Source: Escherichia coli
GTDB lineage: Bacteria; Pseudomonadota; Gammaproteobacteria; Enterobacterales; Enterobacteriaceae
Direction: 5' to 3' (one strand)
Length of the DNA: 64,000 nucleotides
Assembly (NCBI RefSeq): GCF_044324785.1
Contig: NZ_CP172127.1
The position numbers and the translations under genes are program-made. Positions 2,690 to 60,306 of this stretch are shown piece after piece. Under the pieces are notes generated by a model that made no database searches, was not told where the DNA came from, and was given only the letters and a program-made list of their open reading frames with translations. How positions within the stretch are numbered: the first letter of the stretch is position 1; each line of letters opens with the position of its first letter.

Positions 2690-4840
2690 TTAACGCCGCC
2701 GACGGCGTGGGGATTTCGTTTTTTCTTTCTTTTTAACTATACCTTCAGGGACTTCCGGTTGCTCTATCGGAAATACCGGTAATGCATCCAGTAGCCGCTT
2801 GCCATAATTTTTGGTCAGCAAGCGTTTGTCGTAAATCACCACTTCGCCCCAGCAACCGTGGCTTCGAATCAGTCGCCCAACCTGCTGAATCAGGTTAAAC
2901 GAGGCGCTCGGCAGGCTTTGCACCTCAAACGGATAGCGGTTGAGGCTTTTCAGCCATTCTCCTTCGGTGATCACCACCGGGCTGTCGATGGGCGGAAAAG
3001 CGATTTTGTGGATATGCACCTGGCTGAGCAGATCGCCTTTCAAATCAAGCCCTTCGGCAAATGACTGCAAGCCCACCAGCACGCTACGCTCACCGTTGGC
3101 AACGCGTTTGCGGTGCAGTTCAACTAAACGGTAACGCGGCTGATCGCCCTGCACCAGCAACATCAGGCGTAAATCCGTCACATAGTCGAGAAACCGCTGC
3201 ATCGCCCGTCCGCTGGCAAACAGTACCAACATACCGAGATGTTTTTTGCTCTCCACCTGTTTACGGAAAAAGGCCGCCATTTCGGCAATGTGCTGCTCTT
3301 CGTTGTCGATGGAAGGCTCAACGCGCATCCGGGGAATAACAATTTTGCCCTGTTCGCAGTGGTTAAAGGGCGAATCCAGCGCCACAAAGCGGTCGCCCGC
3401 TTTCTCTTTCAGCCCGCTCATCTCCTGCAAACGCGAAAAACTGTTCAGCGAACGCAAGGTTGCGGAAGTGACAATAATGTGCGGAATACTGCGCCACAGC
3501 AGCCTTTCCAGCTGATCGCTGACACGAATACCCACGCAGTGAAACCAGAGATGCAGCTGCCCTTCGCGCTCTTCCCGCGTCGCCCATTTGGTCACCGGCG
3601 CACCGGAAGATTGCGCCAGAGACGCCAGCCGCCAGAGTTTGCTTTGCGCCTCGAACATCCCCAGCGCGCGGTTCATCTGCAAAATCAACCGATGCAGACG
3701 TACAATGTCATGGCTGCCGGTTTTCTCACTTAAATCGTTAAGAAATAACTCCGCCAGACCACGCAGCATCTCGGTGAGTTTTGCCAGCCGTTGGCAGATC
3801 TCCAGCACTTCATCAGGCAGTTCGCCCATCGCAAAACGGTGCTCTGCCTCCTGCCCGGCAGGCATGTAGAGGTTGAGAATGTTGTTTAACGAGGCGATAA
3901 GCTCATACAACTCTTCACAATGGGCATTCAAACGCTCGGGGATCGCCAGCGGAGGGATGGTCTTCGGGCGAAACTGCTCCATACAGGTAGCGACCAGTTT
4001 CGTGAACAAGTCCAGCTGTAGCCGATACCAGGGCGCGGTGATTTCGGCGCTCATCTCCAGCGCATCCCGTGCCACATCCGGCAGGTGATGACCTTCGTCC
4101 AGCACCAGCAGTAAATTTTTCGGGTCAGGCAATACGGCTTCGCTTTCCATCGCCGCCATCACCAGCGCATGGTTTGCCACTACAACTTCCGCTTCCTGAA
4201 TTTCCCGACGAGCGACAAAAAACGGGCATTCGCGATAGTAATAACAGTTGCGGTTGAGGCAGCTGGCTTTGTCGGTACTCAACCGACGCCAGAGATCATC
4301 ATCAATGGCGATATCCGTATGATCGCGCAGACCATCCCATTTATAAGTGTCGAGATCGCCCTTCAACTTTGCACAACGCTTTTGCTCTTCCTGATTGTTC
4401 GGCGTCAGCTCGTCGTCAAGAAACGCCAGCAGATCCTGTTGCGTGGGTTCAGTACTGGCAAGCGCTGTCAGATTACGCGGGCAAACGTAGCGCCCACGCC
4501 CAAAAGCGGCAGTGAATTTAAGATCGGGAATGATCTTTTTCAGCAATGGTAAATCTTTGCTGTAGATCTGATCCTGCAACGCCACGTTGGCGGTACTCAC
4601 CACCAACGTTTTTTGCTCTTCGCGGGCAATGGCGATGCCGGGAATCAAATAGGAGAGCGTTTTCCCAACGCCGGTGGGTGCTTCAATCGCCAGATGCCGC
4701 CCTTCTTCTCCGGCCAGCGTTTTGGCGACGTCCGCAATCATCTGCCGCTGCGGCGCACGGGGAATAAAGTCGGGGATCTGTTCCTGAAGCGCCTTATACC
4801 AGGCGGCAATTTGCGCTTTAAGCGCGGCGGTTAATGCCAT
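2690..4840 (-). CDS. dinG: ATP-dependent DNA helicase DinG
   Basis: 716-aa ORF with helicase motifs (GVGKT Walker A, DEGH box) and cysteine-containing region; a LexA box lies upstream. Confidence 0.95.
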   Translation of the reverse strand: MALTAALKAQIAAWYKALQEQIPDFIPRAPQRQMIADVAKTLAGEEGRHLAIEAPTGVGKTLSYLIPGIAIAREEQKTLVVSTANVALQDQIYSKDLPLLKKIIPDLKFTAAFGRGRYVCPRNLTALASTEPTQQDLLAFLDDELTPNNQEEQKRCAKLKGDLDTYKWDGLRDHTDIAIDDDLWRRLSTDKASCLNRNCYYYRECPFFVARREIQEAEVVVANHALVMAAMESEAVLPDPKNLLLVLDEGHHLPDVARDALEMSAEITAPWYRLQLDLFTKLVATCMEQFRPKTIPPLAIPERLNAHCEELYELIASLNNILNLYMPAGQEAEHRFAMGELPDEVLEICQRLAKLTEMLRGLAELFLNDLSEKTGSHDIVRLHRLILQMNRALGMFEAQSKLWRLASLAQSSGAPVTKWATREEREGQLHLWFHCVGIRVSDQLERLLWRSIPHIIVTSATLRSLNSFSRLQEMSGLKEKAGDRFVALDSPFNHCEQGKIVIPRMRVEPSIDNEEQHIAEMAAFFRKQVESKKHLGMLVLFASGRAMQRFLDYVTDLRLMLLVQGDQPRYRLVELHRKRVANGERSVLVGLQSFAEGLDLKGDLLSQVHIHKIAFPPIDSPVVITEGEWLKSLNRYPFEVQSLPSASFNLIQQVGRLIRSHGCWGEVVIYDKRLLTKNYGKRLLDALPVFPIEQPEVPEGIVKKKEKTKSPRRRRR

Positions 4841-21873: not shown

Positions 21874-22863
21874 TTAGCCGCCAATGTACGATAAGTTTTG
21901 CGTAATACCGGTGTTGTTTTGATGCAGGAAATGGGTCTGTTTCTTCTCCCGCAGCGCCGCTGAAATACGCGCTTCCAGCGCCTGTTGCTGGGTATCGTCT
22001 TCCAGCAGATCGCGCAGGTTAACGCCGCCTTCACCAAACAGGCAGAGATGGAGTTTACCAGTGGAGGAAACGCGCAGGCGGTTGCAAGTGGCGCAGAAGT
22101 CTTTTTCATACGGCATGATAAGGCCAATCTCTCCGGCGTAATCCGGATGACAAAAGACTTGCGCGGGACCGTCGCTGCGTTGACGTAATTGGTGGATCCA
22201 GCCGCGACGCAGTAGCTCGTCACGCAGAACCTGACCAGAGATGTGATGCTTACGGAAGAGCTCGCTGCCCTCGCCCGTTTCCATCAATTCGATGAAACGC
22301 AGCTGGATAGGGCGATGCTGGATCCAGTTCAGAAAGGTGTCGAGCTGATGATGATTAACATCACGCATCAGCACGGTATTGACTTTGACCTTCTCAAAAC
22401 CGGCCTCAAATGCAGCATCGATCCCTGCCATGACCTGGTTGAATTTATCCTGCCCGGTAATGGCATGAAACTGGCGAGCGTCAAGGCTATCAACGCTGAC
22501 GTTGATGCCAGTAAGTCCCGCATCGCGCCAGTTCGCCACATCGCGTTCCAGACGGTAACCATTGGTGGTGACCGCAATCTGGCGGATAGCGTCGTTTTCC
22601 CGCACAGCGACGATGATATCGGTAAAGTCGCGGCGTAAAGACGGCTCACCGCCTGTCAGGCGCACTTTTTCGGTGCCCAGACTGGCAAAGGCGCGCGTAA
22701 CCCGGCGAATTTCATCGACGGTAAGAAAGCCTTTATTGGTGACGCCGCTCGGTTTGTAGCCATCCGGCAGGCAGTAGGTGCAACGAAAGTTACACACATC
22801 AGTAATCGACAGGCGCAAGTAGTAAAACTTACGCGCAAATGCATCAGTCAGTTGTGAAGCCAT
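21874..22863 (-). CDS. moaA: GTP 3',8-cyclase MoaA (radical SAM)
   Basis: ORF 21874..22944 trimmed to MASQLTDAF... (329 aa); CxxxCxxC motif (CNFRCTYC). Confidence 0.95.
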
Positions 22864-22865
22864 GT

Positions 22866-23000
22866 ACACCTTTCCAGATACGGGAGGCGAAGTCATTTCT
22901 TCCTTCGCCCTGGTGGCAATCTTTACGAGCATTGTCACGGCCAAAGCACCGTATCAGTTGACCCAGGTGCAGAGGCTAGAGTGTTTAGTGGTTAAGCCGA
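22866..23000 (-). ncRNA. Moco (molybdenum cofactor) riboswitch candidate in the moaA 5' leader
   Basis: Position immediately upstream of moaA; leader contains GCCUCCC and GGAAAGG elements next to the start codon. The fold was not checked. Confidence 0.45.
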
Positions 23001-56446: not shown

Positions 56447-57490
56447 TTATCCACGTAGTGTAGCCGCAAAATACAGCATACGATTGAGCGGCACTAGCGC
56501 CCTCTCTCGCAGCCTTTCATCAACATGAACCTCGTGATTGCTTCCTTCCTGTTCTAATGCCTCTGCGATGGCCTGAAGGCCATTCATGGCCATCCACGGA
56601 CAATGCGCGCAGCTGCGGCAGGTTGCACCCTCACCTGCGGTTGGTGCTTCCAGTAACTCTTTATCTGGCACCGCCTGCTGCATTTTGTAGAAAATACCCC
56701 GATCGGTTGCCACAATAATCCTCTGATGTGGCAATGTTTTCGCAGCAGCGATCAGTTGACTGGTGGAACCGACCGCATCCGCCATATCGACAATAGCGTG
56801 TGGTGATTCTGGATGCACCAGTATGGCAGCATCCGGGTATTCTTCTTGCAAGCGGGTTAACGCCTGAGTCTTAAATTCATCATGCACAATGCAGGCACCC
56901 TGCCAGCATAAAATGTCTGCGCCCGTCTGTTTTTGCACGTAACGCCCCAGATGTTTGTCGGGTGCCCAGATGATTTTTTCACCCAAACTATCCAGATGAT
57001 CAATAAGTTCGACGGCAATGCTTGAAGTTACCACCCAATCTGCCCGCGCTTTTACCGCAGCAGAAGTGTTGGCGTAGACGACGACAGTATGATCGGGATG
57101 GGCATCGCAAAATACGTTAAATTCTTCAACAGGGCAGCCGAGATCCAGTGAACATTCAGCCTGAAGTGTCGGCATCAGAATTGTTTTTTCCGGACTGAGA
57201 ATTTTGGCGGTTTCTCCCATAAATCTCACCCCAGCGACTAACAACGTAGAAGCGGGATGCTTTGCACCGAAGCGCGCCATTTCCAGAGAATCAGAAATAC
57301 AGCCACCGGTTTCTTCTGCCAGTTGTTGAATTTCGGGATCGGTATAGTAGTGGGCAACCATCACCGCATTACGTTCTTTTAGCAGACGTTTTATCTTCTC
57401 GCGGTAATACGCTTTTTCATCAATGCTTAACGGCGTCGGCTTCGGGGGGAAAGGATAAATCGCCGTGTCTGGATCAAACATCACGCTCAT
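56447..57490 (-). CDS. nadA: Quinolinate synthase NadA
   Basis: 347-aa ORF; synteny. Confidence 0.95.
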
Positions 57491-57562
57491 CTTACCATCT
57501 CGTTTTACAGGCTTAACGTTAAAACCGACATGAGCGTAATATTCGCTGTTATCGGTGAAATT

Positions 57563-57580
57563 TGTTTTATATGCTAAACA
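57563..57580 (-). promoter_or_regulatory. NadR operator at the nadA promoter
   Basis: Minus strand reads tgtttagcatataaaaca (TGTTTA-N6-AAAACA), about 70 bp upstream of nadA. Confidence 0.55.
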
Positions 57581-57706
57581 AGATAGTCGAATGGTGGGGA
57601 AAAGTCACTCGAATTACGCCTAATTCCACCGACGTAGAGTTGCTTGCAAAGTAAGCTCTGAAGATGTCATCAGGTTACAAAGTGAAATTGAGGATGCCTG
57701 AATAGC

Positions 57707-57737
57707 CAAAAAGCGCCTTTAGGGCGCTTTTTTACAT
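57707..57737 (-). terminator. Second copy of the tRNA-operon terminator hairpin, part of a duplicated unit
   Basis: aaaaagcgcctttagggcgcttttttacat, identical to the copy at 57863..57892. Confidence 0.5.
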
Positions 57738-57862
57738 TGGTGGGTCGTGCAGGATGACTCGCTTCGCTCGCCCTTCGGGCCGTCGCCGCGAGCGGCTCCG
57801 TTGTTTCGCTGCGCTCAACTCAAACCTGCTGCAGGTTCGAATCTTTGAGTATCGCAGATAGC
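57738..57862 (-). repeat. Degenerate tRNA-Lys-derived unit: 17-nt copy of the tRNA-Lys 3' end, then diverged sequence
   Basis: tggtgggtcgtgcagga is identical to the 3' end of the adjacent tRNA-Lys genes; the rest is no longer tRNA-like but keeps a T-arm-like ctgcaggttcgaatc. Confidence 0.6.
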
Positions 57863-57893
57863 AAAAAAGCGCCTTTAGGGCGCTTTTTTACAT
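57863..57893 (-). terminator. Rho-independent terminator of the lysT tRNA operon
   Basis: Hairpin gcgcctttagggcgc flanked by A/T runs, immediately 3' of the last tRNA. Confidence 0.65.
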
Positions 57894-57969
57894 TGGTGGG
57901 TCGTGCAGGATTCGAACCTGCGACCAATTGATTAAAAGTCAACTGCTCTACCAACTGAGCTAACGACCC
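57894..57969 (-). tRNA. lysQ: tRNA-Lys (UUU)
   Basis: 76-nt reverse complement matches E. coli tRNA-Lys with anticodon loop cuUUUaa and CCA end. Symbol assigned by position in the cluster. Confidence 0.93.
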
Positions 57970-58002
57970 CTTGCGGGATTATGCTGCTTTAATCATTCAG
58001 GA

Positions 58003-58078
58003 TGGTGGGTCGTGCAGGATTCGAACCTGCGACCAATTGATTAAAAGTCAACTGCTCTACCAACTGAGCTAACGACCC
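58003..58078 (-). tRNA. lysZ: tRNA-Lys (UUU)
   Basis: Identical 76-nt tRNA-Lys sequence. Confidence 0.93.
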
Positions 58079-58126
58079 ATACGGGTGTTACCTGAAAGAT
58101 TTCTACTCGGAACCAATCTTTAAAAT

Positions 58127-58224
58127 TGGTGGGTCGTGCAGGATGACTCGCTTCGCTCGCCCTACGGGCCGTTGCTGACGCAACGTTATCCTTCACGCTT
58201 AACATCTGAGTTTGATGTTAAAAT
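58127..58224 (-). repeat. Spacer unit with a 17-nt tRNA-Lys 3'-end stub and a conserved hairpin
   Basis: tggtgggtcgtgcagga followed by tgactcgcttcgctcgccctacgggccgttgctgacgcaacg... Confidence 0.6.
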
Positions 58225-58300
58225 TGGTGGGTCGTGCAGGATTCGAACCTGCGACCAATTGATTAAAAGTCAACTGCTCTACCAACTGAGCTAACGACCC
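58225..58300 (-). tRNA. lysY: tRNA-Lys (UUU)
   Basis: Identical 76-nt tRNA-Lys sequence. Confidence 0.93.
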
Positions 58301-58303
58301 GAG

Positions 58304-58379
58304 TGGTGGGTGATGACGGGATCGAACCGCCGACCCCCTCCTTGTAAGGGAGGTGCTCTCCCAGCTGAGCTAATCACCC
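58304..58379 (-). tRNA. valZ: tRNA-Val (UAC)
   Basis: Reverse complement is gggtgattagctcagctgggagagcacctcccttacaaggagggggtcggcggttcgatcccgtcatcacccacca. Confidence 0.93.
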
Positions 58380-58430
58380 GATACTGCGCTGGATACTACA
58401 AACTACTTCCACCGAACCCACCGTAATTAG

Positions 58431-58506
58431 TGGTGGGTCGTGCAGGATTCGAACCTGCGACCAATTGATTAAAAGTCAACTGCTCTACCAACTGAGCTAA
58501 CGACCC
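58431..58506 (-). tRNA. lysW: tRNA-Lys (UUU)
   Basis: Identical 76-nt tRNA-Lys sequence. Confidence 0.93.
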
Positions 58507-58508
58507 GG

Positions 58509-58584
58509 TGGTGGGTGATGACGGGATCGAACCGCCGACCCCCTCCTTGTAAGGGAGGTGCTCTCCCAGCTGAGCTAATCACCC
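58509..58584 (-). tRNA. valT: tRNA-Val (UAC)
   Basis: Identical 76-nt tRNA-Val sequence. Confidence 0.93.
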
Positions 58585-58619
58585 GATACTACGCTGGATA
58601 CTACAACTAACTATGTTAG

Positions 58620-58719
58620 TGGTGGGTCGTGCAGGATGACTCGACTTCGTCTCGCCCTTCGGGCCGTTGCTGATGCAACGTTATCCTTCACGTTTTACTA
58701 CCGCTTCCACCTTAGCGAT
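58620..58719 (-). repeat. Spacer unit with a 17-nt tRNA-Lys 3'-end stub and a conserved hairpin
   Basis: tggtgggtcgtgcagga followed by tgactcgacttcgtctcgcccttcgggccgttgctgatgcaacg...; closely similar to the unit at 58127..58224. Confidence 0.6.
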
Positions 58720-58795
58720 TGGTGGGTCGTGCAGGATTCGAACCTGCGACCAATTGATTAAAAGTCAACTGCTCTACCAACTGAGCTAACGACCC
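58720..58795 (-). tRNA. lysT: tRNA-Lys (UUU)
   Basis: Identical 76-nt tRNA-Lys sequence; first gene of the operon. Confidence 0.93.
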
Positions 58796-58913
58796 ACTTT
58801 TTCGTTGCTTTCGGTTTGTTTGATATCCCGTGGCAACGGCGGCATATATTACTGATTTCAGACTTGAGCGCAACAAAAATTTCGATGTAGATCACTCAAC
58901 TGCTTATGATTCG

Positions 58914-58952
58914 CACGACACGACCAGAAATAATGCGACTTCTGGTCGTGTG
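58914..58952 (-). terminator. Hairpin downstream of cpoB
   Basis: cacgacacgaccagaaataatgcgacttctggtcgtgtg, about 10 bp past the cpoB stop. Confidence 0.45.
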
Positions 58953-58959
58953 TTATGCA

Positions 58960-59751
58960 TTACATCGCGTTCAGACGTTTTTGCGCCTGTTTAGCGCCAT
59001 CAGTACCAGGATATTTACTGATAACCTGCTGGTATACGGCTTTCGCTTTTGCGGTGTCACCTTTGTCCTGCATGATGACGCCGACTTTAAACATCGCATC
59101 TGCAGCCTTTGGTGACTTCGGATAGTTTTTCACTACCGAAGCAAAATAGTACGCCGCATCATCTTTTTTACCCTTGTTGTAGTTTAACTGACCCAGCCAA
59201 TAATTGGCGTTTGGCAGGTAAGTTGAATCAGGGTAATTTTTGATGAAATTCTGAAATGCCACCATTGCGTCATCCTGGCGGGATTTATCCTGCACCAGCG
59301 CAATAGCTGCATTGTAATCCGTGTTTGCATCACCGCTTTTCACCGGCGCGCCAGCATTCGCAGTACCAGCATCAGCTGTCGGCGTCGTTGATGCCGCCGC
59401 ACCGCTTTGATCACCGCTGGTTGATTGCGCCGCTGCACCACCGCTGCTGAGGCTGTCGATCTGCAACAGGATCTGCTTTTGCCGCTCCACGACCTGATTC
59501 AGTTGATACTGATTTTCCTGAATCTGACCGCGCAGGGAATCAATATCGGATTGATTATCAGAGAGTTGTTGCTGGAGTTGGGTTAAAAGCTGGCTGTGAG
59601 CATTTGAAATACGCTCAAGTTGAGTGACGCGGTCTTCGACCGAGCCTGAGCCGACACTACTGATTGGTGCCTGAGCAAAAGCGGCCCAGGGGGCCGCTAT
59701 ACCAACCAGTAACGACAGACTCAATAGTTGATGTCTGAAGTTACTGCTCAT
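58960..59751 (-). CDS. cpoB: Cell division coordinator CpoB (YbgF), TPR-repeat periplasmic protein
   Basis: 263-aa ORF with signal peptide, coiled coil and TPR repeats, downstream of pal. Confidence 0.93.
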   Translation of the reverse strand: MSSNFRHQLLSLSLLVGIAAPWAAFAQAPISSVGSGSVEDRVTQLERISNAHSQLLTQLQQQLSDNQSDIDSLRGQIQENQYQLNQVVERQKQILLQIDSLSSGGAAAQSTSGDQSGAAASTTPTADAGTANAGAPVKSGDANTDYNAAIALVQDKSRQDDAMVAFQNFIKNYPDSTYLPNANYWLGQLNYNKGKKDDAAYYFASVVKNYPKSPKAADAMFKVGVIMQDKGDTAKAKAVYQQVISKYPGTDGAKQAQKRLNAM

Positions 59752-59760
59752 GCAATTCTC

Positions 59761-60306
<546 letters not shown>

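Follow-up and report, generated by a model that had tools for sequence, protein, structure and literature searches.

RtT RNA, that is, rtT (or rttR) of the tyrT operon, was reportedly described by Bösl and Kersten in 1991. As cited by Stenum et al. (2021, PMC8144298), the tRNA-linked repeats (TLRs) were first described in 1978 by Egan and Landy, and Rudd (1999) counted 22 of them in K-12, distributed over ten loci that hold between one and five each. [quoted passage not shown] According to the same authors TLRs have no known function, none having been demonstrated for any TLR of a tRNA operon, and the phenotype originally attributed to rtT RNA has since been retracted. In rrn operons the TLRs rrA, rrB and rrF are located between the terminators T1 and T2; their RNAs arise from read-through of T1 (Stenum et al., 2021, PMC8144298). 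Transcripts of tRNA-Lys operons have also been characterized. The full-length lysT and valU transcripts (about 1,100 nt and 438 nt, respectively) are single species ending at the terminator, and the terminators of lysV and lysQ are identical, a probe against them detecting full-length transcripts only. This terminator is removed by RNase P, whose cleavage site lies between a U and a G, 3 nt downstream of CCA (Agrawal, Mohanty & Kushner 2014, PMC4176162).

Here we analysed a 64,000-nt stretch of Escherichia coli DNA (the window) that carries the lysT operon and nadA. Results show that a unit located between two copies of the lysT-operon terminator is a TLR. The observation of such a unit in the original prediction is confirmed, but since the layout and the core are shared with rrnB, and TLRs have a literature of their own, the element was already known. 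It is also annotated: most of the RefSeq E. coli records listed carry an ncRNA feature, ‘RtT sRNA’, placed here by the NCBI pipeline (for example in NZ_CP031609.1). We put the probability of the whole explanation at about 0.85, namely that this is a tRNA-Lys-derived copy of the TLR/RtT repeat, bracketed by duplicated terminators, gained and lost by recombination between repeats, and without a function of its own.

The terminator-flanked unit downstream of lysQ

The lysT operon and nadA lie on the minus strand throughout. ARAGORN placed seven tRNA genes between 58795 and 57894 on this strand, in the same gene order as in K-12 MG1655. The last of the seven is lysQ, and the unit is located 36 nt beyond it. 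The nadA gene, which encodes an intact protein of 347 aa, starts at 57490, 247 nt downstream on the same strand.

A terminator hairpin had been predicted to occur twice in this interval, and this was borne out by the 30-mer AAAAAGCGCCTTTAGGGCGCTTTTTTACAT, which is present exactly at 57708–57737 and 57864–57893 (plus strand), the two starts being 156 nt apart; 100 shuffles yielded no match. The full direct repeat extends over 54 nt (57702–57755 and 57858–57911, 98% identity) and joins the final 18 nt of tRNA-Lys to the terminator and GCTAT. Each copy, as transcribed, reads ATCCTGCACGACCCACCA (the tRNA-Lys end), AUGUAAAAAAGCGCCCUAAAGGCGCUUUUUU (the terminator) and GCUAU. A terminator pattern scan listed neither the first terminator (T1) nor the second (T2), because A/U pairs were absorbed into the stem, and folding was therefore used instead. 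The T1 hairpin has a folding energy of −19.1 kcal/mol (z = −6.7) and is followed by U6; that of T2 has −15.3 kcal/mol and U5. In K-12, both copies carry UUUUUUG. T1 and T2 each possess the G+C-rich hairpin and U tract of an intrinsic (Rho-independent) terminator, and the sequence identical to T1 after lysV and lysQ has been treated as one (Agrawal et al. 2014, PMC4176162). The features of the locus are collected in Table 1.

Table 1. Features of the lysQ–nadA interval and related repeats of the lysT operon in the window
Feature	Position	Strand	Basis or remark
lysQ tRNA-Lys	57894–57969	minus	ARAGORN; Rfam tRNA model, 79.2 bits; gene order as in K-12
First terminator, T1	57858–57893	minus	Sense sequence AUGUAAAAAAGCGCCCUAAAGGCGCUUUUUUGCUAU; directly after the lysQ CCA; exact repeat
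RtT-matching unit, 126 nt	57738–57863	minus	Rfam RF00391; equals the ‘RtT sRNA’ feature of RefSeq genomes
5' piece of the repeat body, 28 nt, CTGCGATACTCAAAGATTCGAACCTGCA	57830–57857	minus	Holds the left arm of hairpin H1
GCAGGTTTGA	57820–57829	minus	tRNA-Lys nt 49–58 (5' strand of the T-stem and T-loop), 9/10; right arm of H1
Family core, 64 nt	57756–57819	minus	Hairpins H2, H3 and H4; Rfam RtT alignment and per-sequence folds
Last 18 nt of tRNA-Lys, exact, ATCCTGCACGACCCACCA	57738–57755	minus	Hallmark of tRNA-linked repeats
Second terminator, T2	57702–57737	minus	T1 copy; a single U is replaced by G in the U tract (UUUUUGG)
Short tRNA-linked repeat, lysY–lysZ spacer	58127–58224	minus	RtT, 55 bits; same final 18 nt
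Short tRNA-linked repeat, lysT–valT spacer	58620–58719	minus	RtT, 60.2 bits; same final 18 nt

The DNA between the terminators had been described as starting with a 17-nt copy of the tRNA-Lys 3' end, keeping a T-arm-like motif and being otherwise not a tRNA. The last point held, as ARAGORN called no tRNA in 57700–57893 and no Rfam tRNA match was found there at E ≤ 1. The copy of the tRNA 3' end is indeed exact, extending to 18 nt (TGGTGGGTCGTGCAGGAT, 57738–57755) and matching tRNA-Lys nt 59–76 at all 18 positions. Because operon and nadA are read from the minus strand, however, the unit ends with this sequence rather than starting with it, and the second terminator comes next. The T-arm-like motif likewise exists as an exact 13-nt match (GCAGGTTCGAATC, 57831–57843), but on the plus strand, antisense to all five tRNA-Lys genes. 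As the left arm of a hairpin, it pairs with its sense-strand counterpart GCAGGTTTGA (57829–57820), the right arm. The core that follows contains three hairpins, H2 (GCCG CUCG CGGC), H3 (GCCC GAA GGGC) and H4 (GC GAA GC). As part of the whole explanation, and judging from sequence, the unit very probably derives from a copy of a tRNA-Lys gene that lost its 5' part and carries the structured 64-nt insertion of the family after T-loop nt 58.

The unit matched the full Rfam model RtT (RF00391; positions 1–130) with 46.7 bits, the gathering score being 45 (E = 6.6e-6 for the entire window), and two more RtT matches were found in spacers of the operon (Table 1). It has the features by which TLRs are recognized: it belongs to a tRNA operon and lies downstream of a stable RNA gene, its last 18 bp equal the 3' end of that gene, and its core is shared. 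Its 64-nt non-tRNA core is also found downstream of tRNA-Tyr, of other tRNA-Lys genes and of 5S rRNA, and aligns with the tyrT repeats, the lys spacer repeats, rrB of rrnB and 203 covariance-model matches in other genera. K-12 MG1655 has an identical unit after lysQ, an identical terminator–unit–terminator module after lysV, and four spacer units. Its lysT operon yields five RtT matches with the lysQ unit included, in agreement with the maximum of five TLRs per locus stated by Rudd.

Structure of the repeat family and its spread in other genera

Folds of individual cores gave the same three hairpins with differing sequences. Across units the H2 stem appears as GCCG/CGGC, GUCG/CGAC, GUUGCC/GGCAAC or GCCA/UGGC, and the H4 stem has 2 to 6 bp or is absent. 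When 41 distinct terminator-flanked Lys units were aligned with MAFFT (alignment A1), RNAalifold recovered only two helices from the plain alignment because the H2 and H4 loops vary in length. A five-helix structure was therefore written by hand and tested on A1 and on a model-based alignment. In A1, 82% of cells were paired, compared with at most 41% when partners were slid, and eight pairs carried changes on both sides, compared with 3.8±0.9 in shuffles; H1 was paired in 94% across the 41 homologues. A covariance model built from A1 gave 203 matches in 882 kb, the best 150 of which were taken as alignment A2. Here 85% of cells were paired (30–39% when slid), and changes on both sides were observed in 25 of 31 pairs (13±1.9 in shuffles, 9–13 when slid), all 8 pairs of H2 being compensatory; this covariation is overstated to an unknown degree because A2 was fitted to the hand-written structure and the sequences are related. 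The result nevertheless agrees with the unfitted test on A1. Counts of G·U against A·C in the helices were 59 and 60 overall, 17 and 0 in H1, and 18 and 9 in H2, a pattern compatible with sense RNA, antisense RNA or DNA hairpins. The conservation of these hairpins by compensatory change over six families of Enterobacterales argues for selection on the structure of the family.

The sense strand of the lysQ unit folds with −46.4 kcal/mol (z = −2.4). The inner hairpins are kept, and six positions of the outer stem are non-canonical in the Rfam alignment. In our alignment, three of eight outer-stem pairs are possible, and in the minimum free energy fold a long H1 hairpin takes their place. The E. 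coli copy reads CTCAAAG on the 5' side of the outer stem, which cannot pair, and accordingly the RtT score is 46.7 bits as against 80–83 bits for units of Erwinia and Pantoea.

To find relatives of the unit, one genome of each species was scanned for copies of the 18-mer that lack the A found before it in the tRNA itself. At least 120 stretches were found; among the matches listed, nearly all are from Enterobacterales, in six families, and no Salmonella is present. In Photorhabdus the repeat unit resembles an entire tRNA-Lys gene: the 27 units analysed consist of tRNA-Lys nt 1–58 (49–57 identities), an insertion of 63–65 nt and nt 59–76. P. caribbeanensis has an array of 14.8 tandem copies of 174 nt, each scoring 80–89 bits against RtT, and ARAGORN called no unit of this array as a tRNA. 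One Pectobacterium unit retains tRNA sequence beginning with the anticodon arm. The 5' piece of units in Erwinia, Pantoea and others reads cGTGCAGG, with a 7-nt loop after it, and can pair with the 3' sequence CCTGCACg, which corresponds to tRNA nt 5–7 and the T stem. The tyrT repeats pair likewise (GGGGAAGG with CCTTCCCC). Other genera have one to three tandem periods. A terminator–unit–terminator arrangement beside nadA recurs in Citrobacter, Enterobacter, Pluralibacter, Mixta and Pantoea (in three copies), and many species are without it at nadA.

These comparisons bear on the proposal that the unit is an eighth tRNA gene with its own terminator, decayed at random and private to this operon. 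Descent from tRNA-Lys is upheld by nt 49–58 (9/10) and nt 59–76 (18/18), by the tandem 156-nt period in which they stand, and by the Photorhabdus units, which keep the whole tRNA body; the lack of a detectable tRNA in the unit is also as expected from decay. The part that is not tRNA, however, is non-random. It recurs behind tRNA-Tyr, other tRNA-Lys genes and 5S rRNA, it has 203 covariance-model matches across Enterobacterales with compensatory changes, and an identical unit is present at a second locus, lysV. A conserved and covarying non-tRNA structure, which the original prediction named as a refutation, is thus found at the level of the family. We therefore regard random, local decay as very improbable: the unit belongs to the TLR/RtT family.

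A coding role also finds little favour. The tyrT repeat contains an annotated 29-aa ‘protamine-like protein’, Tpr, and the lysQ unit could by comparison encode a small arginine-rich protein. It has a 28-aa reading frame with a TTG start (57732–57818, minus strand; MSAAKQRSRSRRRPEGRAKRVILHDPPM), whose frame relative to the core is that of Tpr (…RRQRPEGRSAQR). The ATG of Tpr lies in an ATGAGAA loop, but this loop is ATTCGAA in the lysQ unit, and that ATG is present in only 10 of 41 homologues. The reading frame is not kept either, as the distance across the core modulo 3 is 0, 1 and 2 in 23, 14 and 4 units, respectively. Some units have in-frame stops, and length changes of 2 and 4 nt follow hairpin H4. 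A Tpr-like peptide, barely credible on these grounds, was rejected on start codon and frame in the 41 homologues.

Variation among strains and the gain and loss of units

The interval 57560–58000 was held to at least 80% in one place by 2,336 of 5,426 complete E. coli genomes, a share of at least 43% that is a lower bound because divergent flanks on the nadA side reduce coverage. The remaining genomes cover at most 77% of it, in spans of 285 or about 315 nt. In strain E17 (L002) exactly one 156-nt period is missing. The 102-nt body of the repeat was found in 3,242 genomes, with at least 99% identity in 3,095 records; the median number of sites in a genome is two (lysQ and lysV) and the maximum five. 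TLR units within the operon number three in the window, five in K-12, one in L002, four in L003 (none of them after lysQ) and none in L004. The repeat of the lysY–lysZ spacer is missing in L002 and L004, and that of the lysT–valT spacer in L004; all TLR sites in the lysT operon vary between strains. Overall, the lysT-operon spacers and 3' end differ between strains by whole repeat units, and such differences in length do not reflect errors of assembly. For E. coli the lysQ unit is dispensable, and this copy is in part degenerate.

The tandem duplication suggested in the original prediction is well founded, given a 156-nt period within 54-nt repeats, strains that lack exactly one period and genera that have two or three. 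Judging from these end states, the module would comprise the body, the 18 nt and the terminator, bounded by the 54-nt direct repeats. Unequal homologous recombination between these repeats, or slippage between them, would account for its gain, loss and amplification. Comparison of strains and species suggests that gene conversion between the lysQ and lysV loci may spread the module as well.

Presence and absence at five tRNA-Lys genes, together with direct repeats of a tRNA 3' end on either side of the unit as at tRNA integration sites, could also mean that an integrative element once inserted into the tRNA-Lys 3' end and left a scar or part of its attachment site, or that the unit is a miniature element driven by a transposase. 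Yet the genes flanking the unit (cpoB, nadA and pnuC) include no integrase, transposase or other mobile-element gene. Moreover, the flanks always match the upstream RNA gene, be it Lys, Tyr or 5S, while the core is common to all, and tandem arrays with differences of exactly one period fit homologous exchange. An integrative or transposed origin appears highly improbable, in favour of recombination between the repeats.

It is possible that the selected feature is the second terminator, a fail-safe that insulates the NadR-regulated nadA gene, with the repeat body as a passenger. The nadA start is close by and codirectional, T1 and T2 both form strong hairpins with U tracts and are nearly identical, and the arrangement recurs at nadA in the five genera named above. 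One terminator nevertheless suffices in many strains and species, the same module follows lysV, where the next gene, xapR, is convergent, and the U tract of T2 is weakened in the window. Selection for the terminator is therefore unlikely in our view. Under the TLR explanation, the sole likely by-product of the unit would be back-up termination, giving nadA added protection from the strong tRNA operon.

Expression, possible roles and comparison with known systems

In published northerns the main 3' ends of the operon are at the first terminator (Agrawal et al. 2014, PMC4176162), and expression of the unit, including the short structured transcript suggested in the original prediction, would therefore need read-through. 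A pattern scan of 57400–59200 found no sigma-70 promoter, a weak negative because the same scan missed the known lysT and nadA promoters. Transcription of the unit would accordingly depend on RNA polymerase passing T1, and T2 would then end the transcript. As the last 18 nt and the trailer are identical to those of lysQ, the RNA would probably be trimmed in the same way, by an RNase P cut 3 nt after CCA and then by exonucleases, to give a product of roughly 125 nt with a CCA end.

By analogy with RrA, RrB and RrF of rrnA, rrnB and rrnD, such a product might be a functional small RNA whose level tracks transcription of the tRNA operon. The layout is that of rrnB (5S–T1–TLR–T2), with a common core; the structure is conserved with covariation; the sense strand folds with the energy noted above; and RtT RNAs are differentially expressed in a Klebsiella transcriptome. 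Against this, the unit is missing at the lysQ site in up to 57% of E. coli genomes and at the nadA site in many species, its outer stem is degenerate in E. coli with the reduced RtT score that goes with it, and the main transcripts end at T1. In addition, no CsrA binding is predicted for 19 tRNA-operon TLRs (probability < 0.01) and the rtT phenotype has been retracted (Stenum et al., 2021, PMC8144298). A functional RNA from the lysQ copy is consequently quite unlikely, and we retain the reading of a functionless TLR copy.

The verdict of ‘no function’ may be wrong for the TLR family, if not for the lysQ copy. The 64-nt core might be a structured module inserted after T-loop nt 58, the family producing functional tRNA-like or minihelix-like RNAs with CCA ends, the lysQ copy doing so through T1 read-through, and the arrays of about 15 copies in Photorhabdus representing the intact form. 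We give this proposal a slim chance. If it were true, possible roles would be those of decoys or regulators of enzymes that act on tRNA-Lys, or of growth-rate reporters. The question of function is thus tied to the TLR family, with its compensatory hairpins and the T-loop-interrupted tRNA-Lys-like arrays of some genera, rather than to the lysQ copy. The lysQ unit itself matters little: by the account in Stenum et al. (2021, PMC8144298) such repeats were described in 1978 and catalogued in 1999, and they are modelled in Rfam and labelled automatically in RefSeq. Given its public annotation, its presence in some strains only and the absence of a known function, the finding is real but ordinary.

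Compared with other TLRs, the lysQ copy sits after a terminator and not directly after CCA, and its repeat is therefore 54 nt rather than 18–19 nt; otherwise nothing essential differs. It resembles RtT of tyrT in hairpins H2–H4 and in the tRNA-like CCA end. Unlike RtT, it ends in the 3' end of tRNA-Lys rather than tRNA-Tyr, has an unpaired 5' strand of the outer stem and no tpr ATG, and scores 46.7 bits compared with 133–137 bits for the tyrT copies.

The order found in rrnA, rrnB and rrnD, with a last stable-RNA gene, a terminator, a TLR ending in the 3' end of that gene and a second terminator, is the order found here, and the core is common to the lysQ unit and the rrnB repeat (for example AACGTTGCGAAGCAACGGCCCGGAGGG in rrnB). 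The rrn terminators T1 and T2 differ in sequence, whereas at lysQ T2 is a copy of T1, and rrB is unmatched by the RtT model at E ≤ 0.01 whereas the lysQ unit is matched. Binding of Hfq and CsrA has been shown for RrB but is predicted to be absent for the TLRs of tRNA operons (Stenum et al., 2021, PMC8144298). Furthermore, rrA, rrB and rrF are reported to be well conserved, in contrast to the polymorphic lysQ unit. The sponge RNA 3'ETS-leuZ of glyW–cysT–leuZ is likewise a non-tRNA segment 3' of the last tRNA in a tRNA operon, but it is upstream of its terminator and made with every transcript, whereas the lysQ unit lies beyond the first terminator.

Strain-dependent repeats in the lysT operon

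Comparison of window positions 57700-58800 with the corresponding loci of K-12 and strains E17, DETEC-E223 and TUM13066 showed that each site occupied by a tRNA-linked repeat (TLR) in the lysT operon is strain-dependent, the repeat being either present or absent. The operon carries three TLRs in the window, five in K-12, four in DETEC-E223, one in E17 and none in TUM13066. Because the presence of the repeats differs by strain, the operon spacer lengths vary in steps of about 100 nt. In the window, the repeats of the lysY-lysZ and lysT-valT spacers begin directly 3' of the tRNA-Lys CCA and occupy the spacer, and both end in the same 18 nt of tRNA-Lys as the unit after lysQ. An Rfam match to YrlA (Y RNA-like) spanning lysQ-lysZ (57918-58058, minus strand) scored 44 bits, below the gathering score of 69, and is most likely due to the tRNA-like module of the YrlA model.

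Rfam-matched features in the window
Feature	Coordinates	Strand	Match
TLR, lysY-lysZ spacer	58127-58224	-	RtT, 55 bits
TLR, lysT-valT spacer	58620-58719	-	RtT, 60.2 bits
CpoB/ybgF thermometer	59722-59860	-	142 bits, gathering-score match; unrelated to lysQ unit
Molybdenum cofactor riboswitch	22851-22995	-	103 bits, gathering-score match; unrelated to lysQ unit

The second terminator and the nadA side

In the window, the second terminator has a U replaced by G in its U tract, giving UUUUUGG (57707-57708, compared with 57863), and the predicted hairpin weakens from -19.1 to -15.3 kcal/mol. In K-12 the tract reads UUUUUUG in both terminators. Between the second terminator and nadA, K-12 and DETEC-E223 have 29 extra nucleotides that the window lacks, the insertion site falling between window positions 57590 and 57620. 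Repeats of ATTAGGCGTAA lie on either side of the inserted stretch, within which CATCCTGCAC matches 10 nt from the 3' end of tRNA-Lys. The window nadA (56447-57490) reads through to encode 347 aa, unlike that of strain N3 (89-1131 of the N3 locus), which is annotated as frameshifted; the 441-nt region of N3 is identical to the window.

The lysV locus and relatives in other genera

The valU-valX-valY-lysV operon of K-12 (730-960 of the extracted locus, L127) ends in a terminator-repeat-terminator module as at lysQ. The repeat body there is identical to that after lysQ in K-12, which suggests that the two loci, 1.7 Mb apart, have undergone gene conversion.

In Photorhabdus caribbeanensis (L007, 5407-7983) and at two further loci (L034 and L035), two intact tRNA-Lys genes are followed by tandem arrays of up to 14.8 units of 174 nt. 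Each unit comprises a complete tRNA-Lys-like gene with a structured insertion of 63-65 nt after T-loop nucleotide 58. The Photorhabdus units score 80-89 bits against RtT, and ARAGORN called no tRNA in them. One Pectobacterium zantedeschiae unit (L064, about 3026-3172 in sense coordinates) retains the tRNA-Lys anticodon arm (with TTC where tRNA-Lys has TTT), variable loop and 5' strand of the T-stem, fused to a shortened core. This unit is intermediate in form, standing between the Photorhabdus units and the truncated version of E. coli.
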